Below are positions 3,149 to 34,138 of a DNA stretch of 43,933 nt, in pieces. Under the pieces are notes generated by a model, which was not told where the DNA came from, did not search any database, and was given only the letters and a program-made list of their open reading frames with translations. Origin of the DNA: a virus (lineage: Duplodnaviria; Heunggongvirae; Uroviricota; Caudoviricetes); IMG/VR virus record IMGVR_UViG_2711768014_000011; one strand, given 5' to 3'. The translations under genes were made by a program, and so were the position numbers. Position 1 is the first letter of the stretch, and each line of letters starts with the position of its first letter.

Positions 3149-3854
3149 TCAGCGACCAATCACCACAACCTGACCACCATCCCCTTCGTCTGCCGTGCTG
3201 ATCTCCTGAGAAACCACACGTGACCCCACGCGCATTTCCCCGTACAGNNNNNNNNNNNNNNNNNNNNNNNNNNNNNNNNNNNNNNNNNNNNNNNNNNNNN
3301 NNNNNNNNNNNNNNNNNNNNNNNNNNNNNNNNNNNNNNNNNNNNNNNNNNNNNNNNNNNNNNNNNNNNNNNNNNNNNNNNNNNNNNNNNNNNNNNNNNNN
3401 NNNNNNNNNNNNNNNNNNNNNNNNNNNNNNNNNNNNNNNNNNNNNNNNNNNNNNNNNNNNNNNNNNNNNNNNNNNNNNNNNNNNNNNNNNNNNNNNNNNN
3501 NNNNNNNNNNNNNNNNNNNNNNNNNNNNNNNNNNNNNNNNNNNNAAAACACACCGCCACTTTTGGCACCCGCCAGACGCGGAACGATGTGGATCACGGCA
3601 CCATTTGCCAGCGGTTCATTAAGACGGGCAGATAATTCATTTTCGCCTGCATCACGCCCGGCAATGCGCACCTGATACCAGCCGTCGCTCAGTTTCTGAC
3701 GAAATGCCGGGAGCTGTGTGGCCAGTGCCCGGATGGCTTCGGCCCCCGTTTTCACACGAAGGTCGATGCGGCGGCCAAATCGCTGCAAATCCCCGTAAAG
3801 GCAGATGCGTGCCATGCCCGGTGACGCCAGAGGGAGTGTGTGCGTCGCTGCCAT
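3149..3854 (-). CDS. I: Tail assembly protein I (lambda gpI-like); N block 3248-3544 inside
   Basis: N-terminus MAATHTLPLASPGMARICLYGDLQRFGRR and C-terminus LYGEMRVGSRVVSQEISTADEGDGGQVVVIGR match recalled lambda I; the frame changes across the N run. Confidence 0.8.
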
Positions 3855-4714
3855 TTGTCGGTATACCTCTCTCGTTTGCTCAGTTGTTCAGGAATATGGT
3901 GCAGCAGCTCGCCGTCACCACAGTAAATGGCGGCATGATTCGGCACCGATGAACCAAAACAGCACAGCAGCACATCGCCCGGCTGCGCCGTTGACAACGG
4001 CACCTGATACAGCCCTGTAGCCTCCAGATTATCCAGATAGAGATTCTGACCATTACGCCACCAGTCGTCCTCACGATGAAAATCTGGCATCTCAATTCCC
4101 GCCAGATGGTAAGCGTCCCGGAACAGCGTGTAACAGTCCGTCACCCCGTGCTCAAAGCGCCGCCCGGTGAGATGCGGCACACAGCGGAACTTGTGAATCG
4201 CCCCGCGGCAGACCAGCCACCACGACAAATCACTCTGCACCTGCAGCCGCCGGTCGGCCTCACTCAGCCAGGGCAGACCACCGGGGTGGCTGTGGACCAG
4301 CGCCACAATCTCACCCTGCATCTCTGCCTNNNNNNNNNNNNNNNNNNNNNNNNNNNNNNNNNNNNNNNNNNNNNNNNNNNNNNNNNNNNNNNNNNNNNNN
4401 NNNNNNNNNNNNNNNNNNNNNNNNNNNNNNNNNNNNNNNNNNNNNNNNNNNNNNNNNNNNNNNNNNNNNNNNNNNNNNNNNNNNNNNNNNNNNNNNNNNN
4501 NNNNNNNNNNNNNNNNNNNNNNNNNNNNNNNNNNNNNNNNNNNNNNNNNNNNNNNNNNNNNNNNNNNNNTCCGGAAATACTCCTCCGGCTCACCGGAAAT
4601 ATTCACGCAGGGAAAATATCTTTCCCCCTCCGGTGTTCTCACCACGAAGCCGCACGACTCCGCTGGCGCACATCGCCGGGCGTGCGCCAGAATCGCTGAT
4701 TCTGTCTGTGTCAT
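3752..4714 (-). CDS. K: Tail assembly protein K (JAB/MPN metalloprotease-like HSHPGG motif plus NlpC/P60-like C-terminus); N block 4328-4569 inside
   Basis: MTQTESAILAHARRCAPAESCGFVV and EIVALVHSHPGGLPWLSEADR motifs; 103-nt overlap with I start as in lambda. Confidence 0.8.
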   Translation of the reverse strand: MTQTESAILAHARRCAPAESCGFVVRTPEGERYFPCVNISGEPEEYFRXXXXXXXXXXXXXXXXXXXXXXXXXXXXXXXXXXXXXXXXXXXXXXXXXXXXXXXXXXXXXXXXXXXXXXXXXXXXXXXXXAEMQGEIVALVHSHPGGLPWLSEADRRLQVQSDLSWWLVCRGAIHKFRCVPHLTGRRFEHGVTDCYTLFRDAYHLAGIEMPDFHREDDWWRNGQNLYLDNLEATGLYQVPLSTAQPGDVLLCCFGSSVPNHAAIYCGDGELLHHIPEQLSKRERYTDKWQRRTHSLWRHRAWHASAFTGICSDLAAASTFV

Positions 4715-4719
4715 GGGAT

Positions 4720-5418
4720 TTACTGCGAAAGTTTGTTAATGGAAAGGAAGCCGCCAAAGTTGCCGACGTTATTGCGAAACTTACAGCCGCTCAGGCATTT
4801 GCTGCATTTATCCTTCGTGATATCGGACGTTGGCTGGTCATATTCATCCGCGACAGCCGGACCGTGATAACCGCACTCATCACCGCGATAGGTCCAGGTG
4901 CAGGTATTAGCAAGCATGATGCGCCCCGGAAAAACAGCGCCGTCCGTTTCCGTCGGCGTGGACAGTACAAAGGAGGCACTGACCGCGCTCAGTTCGCTGC
5001 ACTGCTCAATACGCCAGCGGCTGATCACCTCCTGCTCCGGATCGGCGTCACTGTTTCCGTTGACGAAGTTCACCGCATCCAGAAAACGGGCGTAAACCTT
5101 ACGCCTGACCACCGTTCCGCCGACCAGACTCTGCAGGTCTTCCGCCATCCCGGTGACCATGCCGTGCAGATTAGAGACTTTCAGCGTTGGCCTTGCACTG
5201 GCACCTTTGCCGTTCATCTCAAATCCACTCCCCTGAATGGGATAGGCCTGATACTGCCGACTCTGCCAGGTGACAGACTCTCCTTTCTCGTTCTGCTCAT
5301 TGCAGAAAAAGTAGCGATCCCCGCCTACCTCGGTCAGGTCGATTTCCCAGAGCACCACGCTGGCCGACTGCTCCGCACGAATGCATTCATTCAGCGTTTC
5401 CTGTTGTATGTCCTGCAT
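4720..5418 (-). CDS. L: Tail tip protein L (lambda gpL-like)
   Basis: 232 aa; [33 protein letters not shown] and C-terminus CSKCLSGCKFRNNVGNFGGFLSINKLSQ match recalled lambda L almost residue for residue. Confidence 0.9.
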   Translation of the reverse strand: MQDIQQETLNECIRAEQSASVVLWEIDLTEVGGDRYFFCNEQNEKGESVTWQSRQYQAYPIQGSGFEMNGKGASARPTLKVSNLHGMVTGMAEDLQSLVGGTVVRRKVYARFLDAVNFVNGNSDADPEQEVISRWRIEQCSELSAVSASFVLSTPTETDGAVFPGRIMLANTCTWTYRGDECGYHGPAVADEYDQPTSDITKDKCSKCLSGCKFRNNVGNFGGFLSINKLSQ

Positions 5419-23350: not shown

Positions 23351-23815
23351 TTACTTTAAACACTGCTCGGTTATGTATTGCTGAGCACCTTCAAGTTGGG
23401 CCTGCATCATTACCAGTCGTTCCCGGAGGGTGAAATAATCCCGTTCAGCGGTGTCTGCCAGTCGGGGGGAGGCTGCATTATCCACGCCGGAGGCGGTGGT
23501 GGCTTCACGCACTGACTGACAGACTGCTTTGATGTGCAACCGACGACGACCAGCGGCAACATCATCACGCAGAGCATCATTTTCAGCTTTCGCATCAGCT
23601 AACTCCTTCGTGTATTTTGCATCGAGCGCAGCAACATCACGCTGACGCATCTGCATGTCAGTAATTGCCGCGTTCGCCAGCTTCAGTTCTCTGGCATTTT
23701 TGTCGCGCTGGGCTTTGTAGGTAATGGCGTTATCACGGTAATGATTAACAGCCCATGACAGGCAGACGATGATGCAGATAACCAGAGCGGAGATAATCGC
23801 GGTTACTCTGTTCAT
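23351..23815 (-). CDS. rzpR: Spanin inner-membrane subunit Rz
   Basis: [94 protein letters not shown] matches recalled lambda Rz. Confidence 0.9.
23410..23595 (-). CDS. rzoR: Spanin outer-membrane lipoprotein Rz1, embedded in the +1 frame of Rz
   Basis: [57 protein letters not shown]; lipobox VVGC and proline-rich tract as in lambda Rz1. Confidence 0.85.
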
Positions 23816-24315
23816 TGCTGACCCCACAAACAGATTTCACGCTCAATCTCACGACGAGTCATGAGACCTTTCCATTGCTTACCGCCAGCATATGTCCAGC
23901 GACGTAGCTGATCACATGCGCCTTTGATATCGCCCTGGTTTATTTTNNNNNNNNNNNNNNNNNNNNNNNNNNNNNNNNNNNNNNNNNNNNNNNNNNNNNN
24001 NNNNNNNNNNNNNNNNNNNNNNNNNNNNNNNNNNNNNNNNNNNNNNNNNNNNNNNNNNNNNNNNNNNNNNNNNNNNNNNNNNNNNNNNNNNNNNNNNNNN
24101 NNNNNNNNNNNNNNNNNNNNNNNNNNNNNNNNNNNNNNNNNNNNNNNNNNNNNNNNNNNNNNNNNNNNNNNNNNNNNNNNNNNNNNNNNNNNNNNNNNNN
24201 NNNNNNNNNNNNCCAGACCATCGTTACCACTTGGGCCAGTGATTAACACTGATGCTATAGCAATTGCTCCGCCACCAATAGCAGCAGCAACGACTTTTCG
24301 TAATGATGGAGGCAT
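23812..24315 (-). CDS. SAR endolysin (T4-lysozyme-type, RrrD-like); N block 23947-24212 inside
   Basis: N-terminal signal-anchor-release segment [34 protein letters not shown] and C-terminus [37 protein letters not shown]; start overlaps the holin stop (ATGA). Confidence 0.85.
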
Positions 24316-24530
24316 TATTCACCTCTCGCAGCCTTGCGCTTATCTTCTTTAATCTTGAAATAAAGGTTTGTCAGGTACGTCAGCAGGCCAAATACCAGAC
24401 TACCCAGCACACCGATTGCAGCCCACTGTGACGGAGTTACTCTATCGAGCAACTGTAAAAACCAGTAGCCAGCACTGCCTGCGGAGGTGCCGTAGGCAAT
24501 GCCTGTTGAAATTTTGTCCATGGATTTCAT
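24315..24530 (-). CDS. Class II holin (phage 21 S21-like pinholin) with dual-start motif MKSMDK
   Basis: 71 aa [71 protein letters not shown]; matches recalled S21. The track start at 24587 is an upstream extension. Confidence 0.85.
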
Positions 24531-24630
24531 AGCCTCACCTCCGCACGGAACGGATGGCATAGTTATTATGTGTAGGCTTTCAGACACATCAATCAGAGCC
24601 TTAATTGATATATATGCTGGAGACGATGCA

Positions 24631-24655
24631 ATATAAAAAGCTCGCCGTAGCGAGC
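24631..24655 (-). terminator. Intrinsic terminator downstream of the lipoprotein moron genes, upstream of the holin
   Basis: Minus-strand RNA AGCUCGC-uacg-GCGAGCU (perfect 7-bp stem) followed by UUUUAUAUUG. Confidence 0.45.
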
Positions 24656-24781
24656 TAATAAAATGTATTTCTCTGATATTATGTTTATTTGTATTAGCTC
24701 AGACTTGACATCACAGGTTTCGTATATAGAACATCATCAAATCTGTCAGTTTGCTATGAATGAGATATAGTAATTGAAGAG

Positions 24782-25177
24782 CTAACCTCGCATGTCAAAG
24801 CCAGATTTCTGAAAATCTCTGTAGACTTCCGGATTGTTGAAGGCCGGAAATTTGGCTTTATGAGCTGCGGACTTTATCGCTTCGCAATAGGCTTTATCAC
24901 CGTTACTGGTAGATATTTTTAACGCCGTGCCATCCTGAGAGAATTCCATATGCAACCTGCATTTTTTCCCTTTCCAGTTATGCGGCTCATCAAGTTTGGC
25001 ATTAATTGCAGCTCTGATTCCCCGCGCTTGCGCCCCCCATTCATCCTGATCATCCCAGCGTCCTGAACTGCAACTACCTGTAGCAGTAGTTTTGTGGCAA
25101 TCTGAAGGGTGTAAAGGTGTGCATCCCGCAACAAAACCGACCCAAAAAGTCAACATAACGATTTTCTTTAATCCCAC
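24782..25177 (-). CDS. Lipoprotein with TolA C-terminal (domain III)-like domain, paralog 2
   Basis: GTG start with SD GAGGAG 6 nt upstream; signal peptide and lipobox MGLKKIVMLTFWVGFVAGC; C-terminal IRAAINAKL...GKKCRLHMEFSQDGTALKISTSNGDKAYCEAIKSAAHKAKFP aligns with the recalled TolA C-terminus. Confidence 0.6.
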   Translation of the reverse strand: MGLKKIVMLTFWVGFVAGCTPLHPSDCHKTTATGSCSSGRWDDQDEWGAQARGIRAAINAKLDEPHNWKGKKCRLHMEFSQDGTALKISTSNGDKAYCEAIKSAAHKAKFPAFNNPEVYRDFQKSGFDMRG

Positions 25178-25327
25178 TTCTTGCTCCTCAATCCATTAAA
25201 ATCTCAGCAATAGTAGTTGTTACGTCCGCCACTGGCTCAGAGCTGACTATCCGCTAAATTTAGCTCAGTGCCGTAGCTGTGTCAGAACAAACCTAAGCCG
25301 AAACCGTTTATTACAAAACAATAAATA

Positions 25328-25756
25328 TCAGGGTTTAAAATCCAGCACCCCATTTTGAAATACTTTATATACTTCCGGCGAAGGGGGGGCAGGTATATCA
25401 GCATTCTTTATCGCATTCATCGCTTCACGACATAAATCGAGGTCTCCACTTTCTCTTTTAACCTCCAGTAGAAGGCCATTCGGGGCCATATGCATTCTCA
25501 GTGTACACTCTTTTCCTGAATACTTACTCGCATCCCCGAACTGTTTTTCGATGGCGCTCTTGATTTGATGGGCATACAGACGGATATCCTCACTAACATC
25601 AGAAGTACGTTCAGATGAACTCACATACTGTGTCTCTATTGCTTTATCGGAGTAATATGATGTACGGTCATGATAATTTGTCGATACAGCATCAGTGCAC
25701 CCGATAATAATCCCACTAATAATCAACGTAAGAATTGATGCGCTACGAAAACCCAT
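25328..25756 (-). CDS. Lipoprotein with TolA C-terminal (domain III)-like domain, paralog 1
   Basis: Signal peptide and lipobox MGFRSASILTLIISGIIIGC; C-terminal QIKSAIEKQFGDASKYSGKECTLRMHMAPNGLLLEVKRESGDLDLCREAMNAIKNADIPAPPSPEVYKVFQNGVLDFKP closely parallels the recalled E. coli TolA C-terminus (...QIKSAIESKFYDASSYAGKTCTLRIKLAPDGMLLDIKPEGGDPALCQAALAAAKLAKIPKPPSQAVYEVFKNAPLDFKP). Confidence 0.65.
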   Translation of the reverse strand: MGFRSASILTLIISGIIIGCTDAVSTNYHDRTSYYSDKAIETQYVSSSERTSDVSEDIRLYAHQIKSAIEKQFGDASKYSGKECTLRMHMAPNGLLLEVKRESGDLDLCREAMNAIKNADIPAPPSPEVYKVFQNGVLDFKP

Positions 25757-26344
25757 TTTTCCTCACATATGTCATATAGTAAAGGATTATATATACCGTT
25801 GTTTTGGACGCTCAAACAGCGAATCAGATCAAATAAAACGCACATTTGTTAACATTTACACAAAGTCTGCGTGGGATATTCTGAAAGAATATCCATAATG
25901 TGGAGAGAATCTATTGAAGTGCATGGTGCCGGGTGCCTCCCGGTGAACAAAATGTTCGTGATACCTGTCGGCGACAGAAAAGGTTAATGGTATCACCCCA
26001 CCGCACAGGGGGATTCACCATGCAGGAGTTTTCTTAGCAAACTCACTGCGCGCCCGGCAACTCCCAACCACATAAAATGCGGAGTTTGTGGCATTTATGC
26101 ATATAACTCGCAGGAATTATCTTAAAAAACTGATGTCGATCCGGATTAAAAAGAAGCAGGTCATCATCAGATGACTGGAAAAAAGGAAAACAAAAAATAC
26201 TCATCATACAGTTTTGATTGCAGGGATGAGCCTGCTATGCACAATATGCAGAATATAAGCAAGATAAAAATATGCAGGCATATTATTTCGGATCTTGTTA
26301 TTAACACAACCTTTTTAATAATCATTTGGCATACAATAAACCAG

Positions 26345-26373
26345 CCCAAAAAGAACCGCCTAAACAGGCGGTT
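26345..26373 (-). terminator. Intrinsic terminator in the late leader region between Q and the lipoprotein genes
   Basis: Minus-strand RNA AACCGCC-uguuua-GGCGGUU followed by CUUUUUGGG. Confidence 0.4.
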
Positions 26374-26693
26374 GGTCAATACAAAGGATGCTTCGTCTTT
26401 ATTATAGTAATCTGAGGCGTCGGGTGTCTTGTATCAGACAACATATTGTCCCGCTAAACAGCGAATTACAAACCACCCTGCAATGATCTCTCATCTCATT
26501 TTATATGAGTTGACGACATCAGGATAACGCATCATCAGCCCCTGCCAAGAAATATCAAAACTCCCGCCAGCAATGTGTTATCACAATATTGTAAAAAAAA
26601 CACAGCACCGAAACTATAACTGGTCTCTGTTATAATTTGGAGCAGAAAGACCAGTTGCCCAACTAGCAGCATTCTCCCCTGCTTTCCTGACGT

Positions 26694-26720
26694 AAAAAAA
26701 CCGCATTAAGCGGTTTTTTT
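26694..26720 (-). terminator. tR'-like bidirectional hairpin about 80 nt downstream of the Q stop
   Basis: AAAAAAACCGC-attaa-GCGGTTTTTTT; A/T runs on both sides; the position matches where lambdoid phages have pR'-tR' between Q and the lysis genes. Confidence 0.4.
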
Positions 26721-26800
26721 ACGATGTCCATGTCTGCAATCCGCCTCGCGATACAGCTTTGCGAAGCATAGCAAAATTGAAGCAGTTTATACGTAAGAAA

Positions 26801-27343
26801 TCAAGCCATTTTCTCAGCAAATGATTCACGCATGGGAATATATAGGGCATACTCAGCAACAGCTAACCAATTAGCAATCCGTTTTTCGCATGTGCTAAAA
26901 CACCACTCTGGGTGTGCATCATTTAGCAATTCAGCCATTTTGCGCTTAGTCATCCCCCGCCCTTCATAGCGTTGCCGGAGAATGCAAATCAATCCTGGAT
27001 GCTCTGCCAGCACCTCACTTATGACTCGATCAATACATAACGCCTCTGCATCAGTACAATGCGCCAGCCAGCTCTTTTGCTTGCCGTTGATCATCTCTCG
27101 CAAAAACGCTTCCAGCTCAGCTTTCTCTATTCCCGCTTTTTTCATTCTGCGCAGGGCTTCATTAATGGCTGTTTTCGTCAGTTTTTTGGATGCCAACAAC
27201 TGATTGAACATATTCCCTGACCTGCCACCGCCAATATACGACCAGCGCCCCCACATACGTAGTTTTCCCTGAATCCAGACACTTTCCAGCGTGGTGAGGC
27301 GAAGGTGTTCTCCGCTTTTTCCTGTATTCGTTGGGTAAATCAT
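26801..27343 (-). CDS. Putative late antiterminator Q-like protein
   Basis: 180-aa ORF directly upstream of the tR'-like hairpin and the lysis cassette, downstream of nin-type genes; call is mainly positional. Confidence 0.45.
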   Translation of the reverse strand: MIYPTNTGKSGEHLRLTTLESVWIQGKLRMWGRWSYIGGGRSGNMFNQLLASKKLTKTAINEALRRMKKAGIEKAELEAFLREMINGKQKSWLAHCTDAEALCIDRVISEVLAEHPGLICILRQRYEGRGMTKRKMAELLNDAHPEWCFSTCEKRIANWLAVAEYALYIPMRESFAEKMA

Positions 27344-27630
27344 AAATGACCTTTCTTTCTCCAGATTTCTTGTGTGCGAAAAACCCCTTCAGCATGCATC
27401 AGGCGCAATTCTTCTTTGGTGTAATCGCTGGTTTTTACCCGCCCGTCGATTAGATCGTGGCATGAGCTACAGGCTATCGCCGCCTGCATATCATGTGGTT
27501 TTGTCGCTGTTCCGCACGTCCCCGCCAGCCTGTAATGCGCCAGCACAGAGGTTTCGGGATTGTGATTGCAGTAGCCAGGGATTCTGATCTGGCACATCTG
27601 GCCTTTAGCCGCTTTACGTAAATTCACCAT
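27340..27630 (-). CDS. DUF1364 / YbcO-like putative zinc-binding nuclease (nin-region protein)
   Basis: 96 aa; PETSVLAH, TKPHD and IACSSCHDLIDGR resemble recalled DLP12 YbcO; 4-nt overlap with the Q-like gene. Confidence 0.55.
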   Translation of the reverse strand: MVNLRKAAKGQMCQIRIPGYCNHNPETSVLAHYRLAGTCGTATKPHDMQAAIACSSCHDLIDGRVKTSDYTKEELRLMHAEGVFRTQEIWRKKGHL

Positions 27631-28229
27631 TACGCAAACTCCAGTAGTTGTGCGGCCACATTTTCAACTTCCTCCTGAGAGGAGAATTTACGGAACAGAA
27701 TCCAGTTCCACAGCACATTCAGTACAGATTTATAAACCTGCTGAAACTCGACTTCGTCCATATTCGCAAAAGCGATGGATTTTGCCCGACGCCCACGGCT
27801 ACCGTCCGGATAAATATGCTCGGTGTAAAATCCGGCCTGAATGGTTACCCACTCGCGGAAAGCCTCAAACGACTTTAGCAACGCCGTATCCCGGGTTCTA
27901 CGAGTCGCAACGGTGTTAAGGTATTGCTCTGCGGCATCACTCAGGGCTGGCGTGTGTTCCCGACCAACTGATTCGCACAGGTAATCAACGAAACCAGACA
28001 GCAGTTCTCGTTCGCGAGGCGTGATCGCCCCACCGACCGGAGTCCAGTAATCGAATCCCAGTTGCAGGAGTTTGAAAAAACGCTTGTGGAATGCGTAGTT
28101 ACGCACACGCTTAAAGTCTGCGTGTATCCACTCACCTATTTTGATTTGATGCAGAAAATCGCAACTCTCCGGCGTCGCCGGGAGAAGTAAACCAGAAGAG
28201 GTTTGTTTGACCAGTTGTATATGCGCCAT
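27630..28229 (-). CDS. Conserved lambdoid nin-region protein of unknown function
   Basis: 199-aa ORF, stop overlaps the next start; phage-like GC; no confident family assignment from sequence alone. Confidence 0.5.
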   Translation of the reverse strand: MAHIQLVKQTSSGLLLPATPESCDFLHQIKIGEWIHADFKRVRNYAFHKRFFKLLQLGFDYWTPVGGAITPRERELLSGFVDYLCESVGREHTPALSDAAEQYLNTVATRRTRDTALLKSFEAFREWVTIQAGFYTEHIYPDGSRGRRAKSIAFANMDEVEFQQVYKSVLNVLWNWILFRKFSSQEEVENVAAQLLEFA

Positions 28230-33395: not shown

Positions 33396-34138
33396 TTACT
33401 TCTCAATTCCTGGCTGGACGACATTCGGACGCCAGCTCTCCCAGTTAAAATTCACCCATCGCCCGNNNNNNNNNNNNNNNNNNNNNNNNNNNNNNNNNNN
33501 NNNNNNNNNNNNNNNNNNNNNNNNNNNNNNNNNNNNNNNNNNNNNNNNNNNNNNNNNNNNNNNNNNNNNNNNNNNNNNNNNNNNNNNNNNNNNNNNNNNN
33601 NNNNNNNNNNNNNNNNNNNNNNNNNNNNNNNNNNNNNNNNNNNNNNNNNNNNNNNNNNNNNNNNNNNNNNNNNNNNNNNNNNNNNNNNNNNNNNNNNNNN
33701 NNNNNNNNNNNNNNNNNNNNNNNNNNNNNNNNNNNNNNNNNNNNNNNNNNNNNNNNNNNNNNNNNNNNNNNNNNNGATAGCTGCCGCTAAGTGGTTCTTC
33801 CCGGTACCAGGTTTTCCGCTGAACGCAAAATTTGTACACCCGGTCATCAGTTCATCAGCGATGGATTTCGCCTGACTCAACGCGTATCGCTGCGCTTCGT
33901 TCTGCACCTGGTAATTCGAAAACGAGCATTTGCGGTGCAATGGCTGGATGCCAGAGCGATTCAGAATTTTTTCCACCCGCAACTGACGATTCTGACGGTT
34001 GATCTCCTCACAACGTTTCTGGCCTTCGGAAAGTTGCCACTCGCGCCACTCCGCTACCGTCTTGAATGGCGCGGTTACATGTGACGGGGCCAGTCTGCGG
34101 ATACGTTCAAGAACGTCGCCTGTCGCAATATTTTTCAT
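33396..34138 (-). CDS. ydaV: DnaC-like replication ATPase YdaV (helicase loader); N block 33466-33775 inside, 3' end frame uncertain
   Basis: N-terminal 121 aa visible with Walker [17 protein letters not shown]; size with the masked block is about 246 aa, close to K-12 YdaV. Confidence 0.7.

Follow-up and report, generated by a model that had tools for sequence, protein, structure and literature searches.

Tandem lipoproteins carrying TolA domain III in a Rac-type Escherichia coli prophage, possible decoys for TolA ligands

The virus record IMGVR_UViG_2711768014_000011 of IMG/VR (Caudoviricetes; 43,933 nucleotides, the whole of which was analysed and is called the window here) carries on its minus strand two tandem genes, P1 (25328..25756) and P2 (24782..25177), each of which encodes a predicted outer-membrane lipoprotein that ends in a homologue of domain III of TolA (TolAIII). 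Relatives of these genes are found in other prophages, on bacteriocin and conjugative plasmids and on chromosomes of diverse Enterobacterales. We tentatively favour the explanation that both proteins act as outer-membrane-tethered decoys for the ligands that bind TolA, that is, group A colicins, the g3p protein of Ff and If1 phages and the N-terminus of TolB. No paper that could be searched describes the architecture, how widely it occurs, its association with bacteriocin plasmids and conjugative plasmids, or the idea of a decoy.

TolA domain III in P1 and P2

P1 starts with ATG and has 142 residues, with a predicted signal peptide (1-19), the lipid-bearing Cys20, a linker (about 21-53) and TolAIII (54-142). 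P2 starts with GTG and has 131 residues, among which the predicted lipid-bearing Cys19 is followed by a conserved linker of the Cys-x8-Cys/GRWDDQDEW type (20-43) and by TolAIII (about 44-131). The initial annotation of this DNA had recognised the C-termini of both proteins by comparison with E. coli TolA, and profile, phmmer and ungapped pairwise comparisons give significant matches for the two of them. With PF06519, the TolA C-terminal domain (a model of 96 positions with a gathering cut-off of 25 bits), P1 scores 82.6 bits (2.4e-23, model positions 4-96) and P2 54.6 bits (1.3e-14, model positions 10-92), while the TolAIII chains 1s62, 3qdp, 2x9a and 1tol of the PDB are matched by phmmer at 5e-28 (P1) and 5e-9 (P2). 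Residues 55-142 of P1 align without gaps with residues 334-421 of E. coli TolA, 52 of the 88 positions (59%) being identical, and residues 51-129 of P2 align in the same manner with TolA 341-419, with 27 identities in 79 positions (34%). The motifs that had been pointed out in P1 are all present: QIKSAIE and the terminal LDFKP are identical to those of TolA, GKECTLR corresponds to GKTCTLR, and both cysteines are kept. This disulphide pair is invariant in the homologue alignments.

Structure prediction and superposition, which had been proposed as a check, also match both proteins to solved TolAIII structures. In the AlphaFold2 models, the domain reaches a predicted local distance difference test score of about 90 in both cases and has the three helices and the three-stranded sheet, with the conserved disulphide pair, by which we defined the TolAIII fold; the top Foldseek matches are E. 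coli TolAIII. The P1 model superposes on 2x9a_B with a root-mean-square deviation of 0.7 Å and a template modelling score of 0.95 (0.7-1.8 Å over the top Foldseek matches), and the P2 model on 3qdp with a deviation of 1.1 Å (1.0-1.4 Å over the top matches). The N-terminal parts that were modelled with low confidence (1-50 in P1, 1-39 in P2) are probably disordered.

P1 and P2 share the fold and the disulphide pair with domain III of E. coli TolA (about 330-421; PDB 1tol, 2x9a, 3qdr and 1s62), but TolA is anchored in the inner membrane and coupled to TolQR, whereas P1 and P2 are lipid-anchored proteins with a predicted outer-membrane location. Their identification as TolA itself was rejected, given that they are 142 and 131 residues long, that they have neither the inner-membrane anchor (domain I) nor the long helical domain II, and that they score below the cut-off of 213 bits with the full-length TolA equivalog NF007065 (107.8 bits for P1, 53.7 for P2). 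With TIGR02794, P1 exceeds the cut-off of 59.45 bits (75.6 bits), yet the match is confined to model positions 265-362, and P2 remains below it (47.2 bits). In all the homologues examined, domains I and II of TolA are replaced by a lipobox.

The homology is already on record in the form of the RefSeq names 'TolA' and 'TolA C-terminal domain-containing protein', of the RAST name 'TolA protein' and of PHROG 5772, a family of 'unknown function' to which both proteins belong (1.6e-62 for P1, 6.7e-65 for P2); identical proteins are present in RefSeq. In RefSeq, P1 is called 'cell envelope integrity protein TolA', a name that over-states the case, as it fits the domain and not the function. The published mentions that we found are bare listings of a 'TolA protein' among prophage or plasmid genes. 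A 32-fold induction by ciprofloxacin of a TolA-like gene of CP-933O (PMC11125564) was set aside, as no link from that gene to P1 or P2 could be established and EDL933 was not among the matches listed.

The two proteins had also been described as paralogues. A recent duplication was rejected, since the domains of P1 and P2 are only about 32% identical and belong to different lineages, and so was a recent capture of E. coli tolA, in view of the identity of just 59% between P1 and TolA. P1 is about equally close to genuine TolAs (55-59%) and to other standalone lipoproteins, and P2 falls in another clade of standalone proteins, which has diverged further. Judged from their sequences, P1 and P2 are anciently diverged.

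Lipid anchors, start sites and linkers

Both open reading frames lie where the initial annotation had placed them and begin, as it had stated, with lipoprotein signals whose lipoboxes are IIGC and VAGC. The rule that we applied, of the PROSITE PS51257 type, combines a basic n-region, a hydrophobic core, a lipobox [LVI][ASTVI][GAS]C and a cysteine at positions 15-35. P1 (MGFRSASILTLIISGIIIGC) passes this rule with K/R in the n-region, IIGC and Cys20, and P2 (MGLKKIVMLTFWVGFVAGC) passes it with VAGC and Cys19, as do the homologues of four other loci (L004-L007) and 43 of the 73 short family representatives; the lipobox cysteine is invariant across the aligned homologues. Residue +2 is Thr, not Asp, in P1 and P2, and none of the family members that pass the rule has Asp at this position. 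By the +2 rule, both proteins are predicted to reside in the outer membrane.

RefSeq places the start of P2 seven codons downstream (124 residues, MLTFWV...), and the basic n-region of the signal peptide is thereby lost. The GTG start appears more plausible because it is preceded by a Shine-Dalgarno sequence, GAGGAG, and because the plasmid copies of P2-type genes have ATG at the same position.

About 25-35 residues separate the signal peptide from the domain in P1 and P2. In P2, this linker carries the motif C-x-PLHPS-x-CHKTTA-x-GSCSSGRWDDQDEWG, with two extra cysteines (residues 20-47), and across genera it is as constrained as the domain (ratio of nonsynonymous to synonymous substitution rates, dN/dS, of 0.06-0.14) despite its low AlphaFold confidence. 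It is probably more than a passive tether, and may be a specific binding element or one stapled by a disulphide.

Distribution and selection

The block that contains P1 and P2 is present, at a coverage of at least 80%, in 776 of 5426 complete E. coli genomes, and the P1 family, including a variant with 81% identity, in 895 of them. P2-type proteins fall into 370 clusters (78-89% identity), which come from Citrobacter, Enterobacter, Serratia, Klebsiella, Raoultella and Shigella, and P2-type genes are found in 31 species-representative genomes of Enterobacterales. About 600 plasmids of E. coli and Shigella carry such genes, pO157 and I-complex conjugative plasmids included. For instance, on pO157 of EDL933 (L003 6001-6432) the P2-type gene adjoins a truncated nikB relaxase gene, and on an IncK2/Z conjugative plasmid with MPF_I (L007 5965-6396) it directly follows a nikB-type relaxase gene; these two copies are 87-88% identical to P2. 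The pili of I-complex plasmids are the receptors of the TolA-dependent phage If1, and PDB entry 2x9a is the complex between the g3p of If1 and TolA. In Serratia marcescens (L012-L015, 8001-10736), the gene lies between nrdDG and a pair of genes with GmrSD_N and HEPN domains, both of which occur in anti-phage defence proteins, and in the Enterobacter cloacae complex it stands by itself on the chromosome, among conserved neighbours.

A more distant TolAIII lipoprotein is encoded by about 700 plasmids, mostly of Klebsiella. On K. pneumoniae p2_020003 (L005 1512-2245 and 3091-5277), its gene overlaps that of a protein with a signal peptide and a TonB C-terminal domain (TonB_C), and the pair adjoins an operon of bacteriocin, immunity and lysis genes. 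The toxin is a full-length homologue (2e-191) of colicin E3, which is a Tol-dependent group A bacteriocin. In 379 plasmid records of Klebsiella there is a copy that shares at least 99% identity with the gene of p2_020003; the records listed are mostly 10-12 kb in length, and the TolAIII lipoprotein is paired with a TonB_C protein in nearly all the records listed. One paper mentions these genes, without comment, on a cloacin plasmid (PMC10269471). As a separate observation, a gene for a thioredoxin-fold (DsbA/TraF-like) protein precedes the TolAIII lipoprotein gene on a Klebsiella IncR plasmid (L006 5217-6246), as it does on large Klebsiella plasmids; this neighbour could aid disulphide formation in the TolAIII domain.

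Overall, related genes are found on about 1300 plasmids. An exhaustive profile search of 1.8 billion representative proteins gave 580 matches, and among the best 150 there are 94 of at most 170 residues, 60 of which have a recognisable lipobox, in dozens of clusters at 50% identity; a few family members have an ordinary signal peptide in place of the lipobox. A lipoprotein signal joined to TolAIII thus defines a large and diverse family. Because genes of this kind are common on plasmids and on the chromosomes of Enterobacterales, their distribution argues for a function that is independent of lysis.

Among diverged copies, selection is purifying. Comparisons of P2 with its plasmid, Enterobacter and Serratia counterparts give dN/dS values of 0.08-0.13 at dS 0.5-1.1, and that of P1 with its 81%-identical variant gives 0.35 overall and 0.29 in the domain, while the copies within E. 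coli differ very little (identity of at least 99% in 784 records). Given these values (0.08-0.35 across diverged copies), P1 and P2 are functional genes.

A tethered decoy for TolA ligands

It has been shown that the C-terminal strand of TolAIII takes up TolB's N-terminus, g3p's N1 domain (g3p-N1) and colicin N (ColN) by β-strand addition, and that colicin A (ColA) binds TolAIII at the LLDIKP strand (PMC4339652; PMC8928145). Hydrogen bonds from the backbone of D418 and K420 of TolA hold g3p-N1, and a proline at these positions abolishes the binding of g3p-N1 and ColN (PMC4339652). In P1, the third β-strand has the LDFKP of TolA, D418 and K420 included, and the ColA box LLDIKP is changed to LLEVKR.

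In the mechanism that we propose, P1 and P2 would be periplasm-facing copies of TolAIII, held under the outer membrane by their linkers, and the tethered domain would bind TolA ligands at the place where these emerge. As P1 and P2 would be uncoupled from TolQR and from the proton-motive force, a bound ligand would not be pulled inwards, and the proteins would behave as dead-end decoys or as dominant-negative competitors of TolA. A lysogen, or the host of a plasmid with such a gene, would then tolerate Tol-dependent bacteriocins and phages of the Ff/If1 type, at the cost of some titration of TolB, and, with two copies that diverged anciently, more kinds of ligand would be covered. Both the ligand binding and the tolerance are properties that we infer for P1 and P2. 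A defence against weapons and parasites that use TolA fits with the places where such genes are carried, namely a group A bacteriocin plasmid, I-pilus conjugative plasmids and prophages.

There are precedents in which a free Tol-interaction domain competes for the contacts of native TolA, with colicin tolerance, filamentous-phage resistance and tol-like phenotypes as a result. Levengood-Freyermuth et al. reportedly observed in 1993 that the export of TolA domain III to the periplasm made wild-type cells colicin-tolerant and leaky. Similarly, periplasmic pIII (g3p)-N1 sequesters TolA, makes cells resistant to colicin A and lowers the uptake of phage by 4 log units (PMC10424213). These precedents are laboratory constructs or a filamentous phage protein, whereas P1 and P2 are natural, lipid-tethered, borne by a tailed-phage prophage and by plasmids, and known here from sequence.

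Small phage lipoproteins of the outer membrane that block other phages and colicin M through an uptake component have been described, namely Cor (phi80, N15 and HK022) and Llp (T5). The target that Cor and Llp inactivate is the receptor FhuA, and their sequences are not related to those of P1 and P2, which would instead imitate a co-receptor of the periplasm and bind either TolB or the invader. The known routes of resistance to colicins and phages are the loss of receptors, costly tol mutations and specific immunity proteins, and TolA domain III is seen as a fixed target. If our proposal were correct, a mobile and tethered copy of this target would represent a different strategy, the mimicry of a host co-receptor, which could lie behind some of the colicin tolerance that is widespread among natural E. 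coli, as well as behind the resistance of the hosts of pilus-bearing plasmids to pilus-specific filamentous phages. The plasmids that carry related genes include those of epidemic Klebsiella and pO157.

The TolAIII and TonB_C pair of p2_020003 is a possible double decoy, directed against Tol- and Ton-dependent import. More speculatively, TolAIII lipoproteins and the periplasmic TonB_C proteins that go with them on Klebsiella bacteriocin plasmids might together constitute widespread and unrecognised 'import-machinery decoys' of mobile elements. Such decoys would confer a receptor-independent and broad tolerance to Tol-dependent and Ton-dependent bacteriocins and to filamentous phages, with P1 and P2 as the form that prophages carry, found in about one of every six complete E. 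coli genomes.

Several observations weigh against a decoy function. P2 has diverged at both ligand sites, with ALKIST for LLDIKP and GFDMRG for LDFKP, and no extra conservation of the ligand-binding residues with respect to the rest of the domain is evident from the sequences. P2 may still bind ligands, albeit uncertainly, because β-strand addition is for the most part a matter of the backbone. Titration of TolB and damage to the envelope would also be expected from a TolAIII decoy. Moreover, P1 and P2 lie in a late operon and their closest relatives keep them together with the holin gene, and the case for a dedicated P1-P2 promoter, and with it for expression in a lysogen, is weak. Many P2-type genes stand alone on chromosomes, in contexts that do not look mobile (e.g., in Enterobacter), and a housekeeping role is possible for them. 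Finally, no defence-protein model of PADLOC-DB 2.0 matches P1 or P2 at E <= 1, and a full-text literature search found no functional study of these proteins.

Alternative explanations

P1 and P2 could be accessories of envelope physiology, that is, regulators or partners of Tol-Pal that, for instance, hold TolB/Pal or tune the mobilisation of Pal, and would then be general fitness genes. The single chromosomal P2-type genes of the Enterobacter cloacae complex, with their conserved and non-mobile-looking neighbourhoods, agree with such a role, as do the very strong purifying selection, which extends to the linker (dN/dS 0.06-0.14), and the dozens of 50%-identity clusters that have the same architecture. 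So does the occurrence in 31 species-representative Enterobacterales genomes with no conserved partner gene, the clustering of open reading frames in 31 chromosomal loci having yielded just lineage-specific neighbours. We nevertheless consider this role unlikely. The genes are over-represented among prophages and among bacteriocin and conjugative plasmids, their neighbours in Serratia are of defence type, and the dS of 0.6 between Enterobacter and Serratia, in our judgement low for vertical inheritance, suggests horizontal spread. Additionally, to our knowledge there is no TolA_C paralogue in E. coli K-12, and a standalone protein would consequently not be needed for Tol-Pal. Should P1 and P2 modulate Tol-Pal after all, they would offer a new handle on the control of TolB-Pal at the outer membrane.

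A role as lysis helpers seems more doubtful. According to this explanation, P1 and P2 would be expressed late with the holin under the control of Q, fill the periplasm in large amounts, cut TolA off from TolB-Pal and loosen the outer membrane for spanin-mediated lysis or for the release of vesicles or virions. The genes are absent from 50,696 of 50,697 sequenced phage genomes, mEp460_ev081 being their sole carrier, and lysis can thus do without them. Plasmid and chromosomal homologues have no lysis genes nearby, a P1 variant lies apart from the lysis genes in the prophage L004, and a terminator stands between P2 and the holin gene. By contrast, P1 and P2 are co-directional with the holin, endolysin and Rz/Rz1 genes and immediately upstream of them, and the block that is shared among prophages includes the holin gene, at whose end it stops in 36 of 80 loci. 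In addition, blebbing and leakage of the outer membrane are known to follow the inactivation of Tol-Pal.

We regard as improbable that P1 and P2 are host-interaction morons like Bor of lambda, for which the TolA fold would be a scaffold used in serum resistance, adhesion or immune recognition. The position of the genes is indeed that of a moron, and both the virulence plasmid pO157 and prophages of Shiga toxin-producing E. coli (STEC) carry them, but bacteriocin plasmids and the Enterobacterales of environmental and commensal origin commonly do so too, they keep the ligand-binding strand and the disulphide of TolA, and we found no evidence suggesting surface exposure. A captured tolA fragment, carried as a non-functional passenger, would account for copies that are nearly identical in E. 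coli (at least 99%, 784 records) and give little selection signal there, but it is very hard to reconcile with dN/dS values of 0.08-0.35, an invariant lipobox and Cys pair, and intact open reading frames in hundreds of genomes and plasmids of many genera.

Genomic context

In E. coli LD39-1, genes in this same order are annotated within a Rac-like prophage that has sieB, kilR, racC, recE and recT, which places P1 and P2 among the late genes of a lambdoid prophage of the Rac type from E. coli. All the features of this region lie on the minus strand, in the order DUF1367 gene (27630-28229), YbcO-type nuclease gene (27340-27630), DUF1133 gene (26801..27343), a gap of about 1 kb, P1, P2, terminator, holin, endolysin, Rz/Rz1 (23351-23827) and trkG. 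The initial annotation had assigned P1 and P2 to the interval between Q and the holin. They are indeed co-directional with, and located between, a Q-like gene and a PF04971 holin gene, but the 'Q' product is a DUF1133 protein (PF06576, 356 bits) that is borderline for Phage_antitermQ (PF06530, 26.1 bits with a cut-off of 26), a putative Q-type late antiterminator. No convincing open reading frames are present in the approximately 1 kb between its gene and P1.

The holin gene (24315..24587; PF04971, 119.9 bits) encodes a P21-type holin S and is the first of the lysis cassette; its RefSeq start corresponds to position 24530 of the window, and it is annotated as essD in L001. The endolysin gene is partly masked by a run of N (23947-24212), one of five such runs of 240-310 bases in the window, the others being 1966-2263, 3248-3544, 4330-4569 and 33466-33775. 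In LD39-1, the counterpart lysozyme gene is interrupted by an IS2 element.

The intrinsic terminator that had been assigned to the pair (24631..24656, between P2 and the holin gene) is real. It consists of a GC-rich stem of 7 bp (24656-24639) with a loop of 4 nt and a UUUUUAUAUU tail, and its folding energy of -13 kcal/mol (z -4.4) was equalled by none of 200 shuffled sequences. Another, very stable hairpin terminator directly follows the Q-like gene (26680-26725, with the hairpin at about 26690-26718; -19.7 kcal/mol, z -6.6), and weak isrK-like Rfam matches accompany it. Farther downstream, a promoter-like site (26430-26401) is followed after about 30 nt by a second terminator-like hairpin (26373-26354). 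The sites in 26340-26430, together with the hairpin after the Q-like gene, may represent a late promoter with a Q-sensitive terminator.

The candidate for a promoter of P1 and P2 is a sigma-70-like sequence, TTGAGC-18-TATAAT (25786..25815), which matches the consensus at 10 of 12 positions and lies 30 nt upstream of the start of P1. Promoter-like sites number 11 in the region, where 7.3 +/- 2.4 are expected by chance, and no recognisable conservation of the candidate was seen upstream of the L004 variant of P1.

An exchangeable block

The limits of homology to the window were determined in 80 IMG/VR prophage loci with an identical P1. Upstream, homology breaks at position 25947 in 39 of the 80 and otherwise runs on through the Q-like module, the block thus standing behind different upstream modules. 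Downstream, the end of the holin gene (24314 or 24328) is the limit in the 36 loci mentioned above, and the block shared among the 80 loci extends from 25947 at least to the masked run of N at 24213 or to the end of the locus. These recurrent breakpoints delimit an exchangeable block, from about 25947 to about 24314, in which P1, P2, their terminator and the holin gene are joined by a portion of an STnc100 element. The same block is present in mEp460_ev081, again with the genes between Q and the holin.

The initial annotation had regarded the interval as a moron slot, equivalent to that of stx. This is supported by the prophage L004, where a single 81%-identical variant of P1 lies after Q and the genes for tRNA-Ile/Arg and before a gene for a SASA-family esterase, a position that we take to be that of stx in Stx phages. 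Furthermore, the P1-P2 cassette has its own terminator and is found in at least three different lambdoid backgrounds, which fits with accessory cargo. The lambda morons Bor and Lom and the stx cassette are likewise accessory cargo in or next to a lambdoid late operon, and have no sequence kinship with P1 and P2.

The STnc100-family RNA element RF02076 lies upstream of P1 (25867..26053) and is a full-length Rfam match (86.6 bits, with a gathering score of 47). Since the commonest upstream breakpoint, 25947, falls inside this element, STnc100 repeats may be recombination joints for the exchange of cargo in lambdoid late regions. Other copies are located upstream of P1 in mEp460_ev081 (L002 4700-4890) and, in L004, downstream of the P1 variant, with three further copies in tandem (4682-4894 and 2192-2923).

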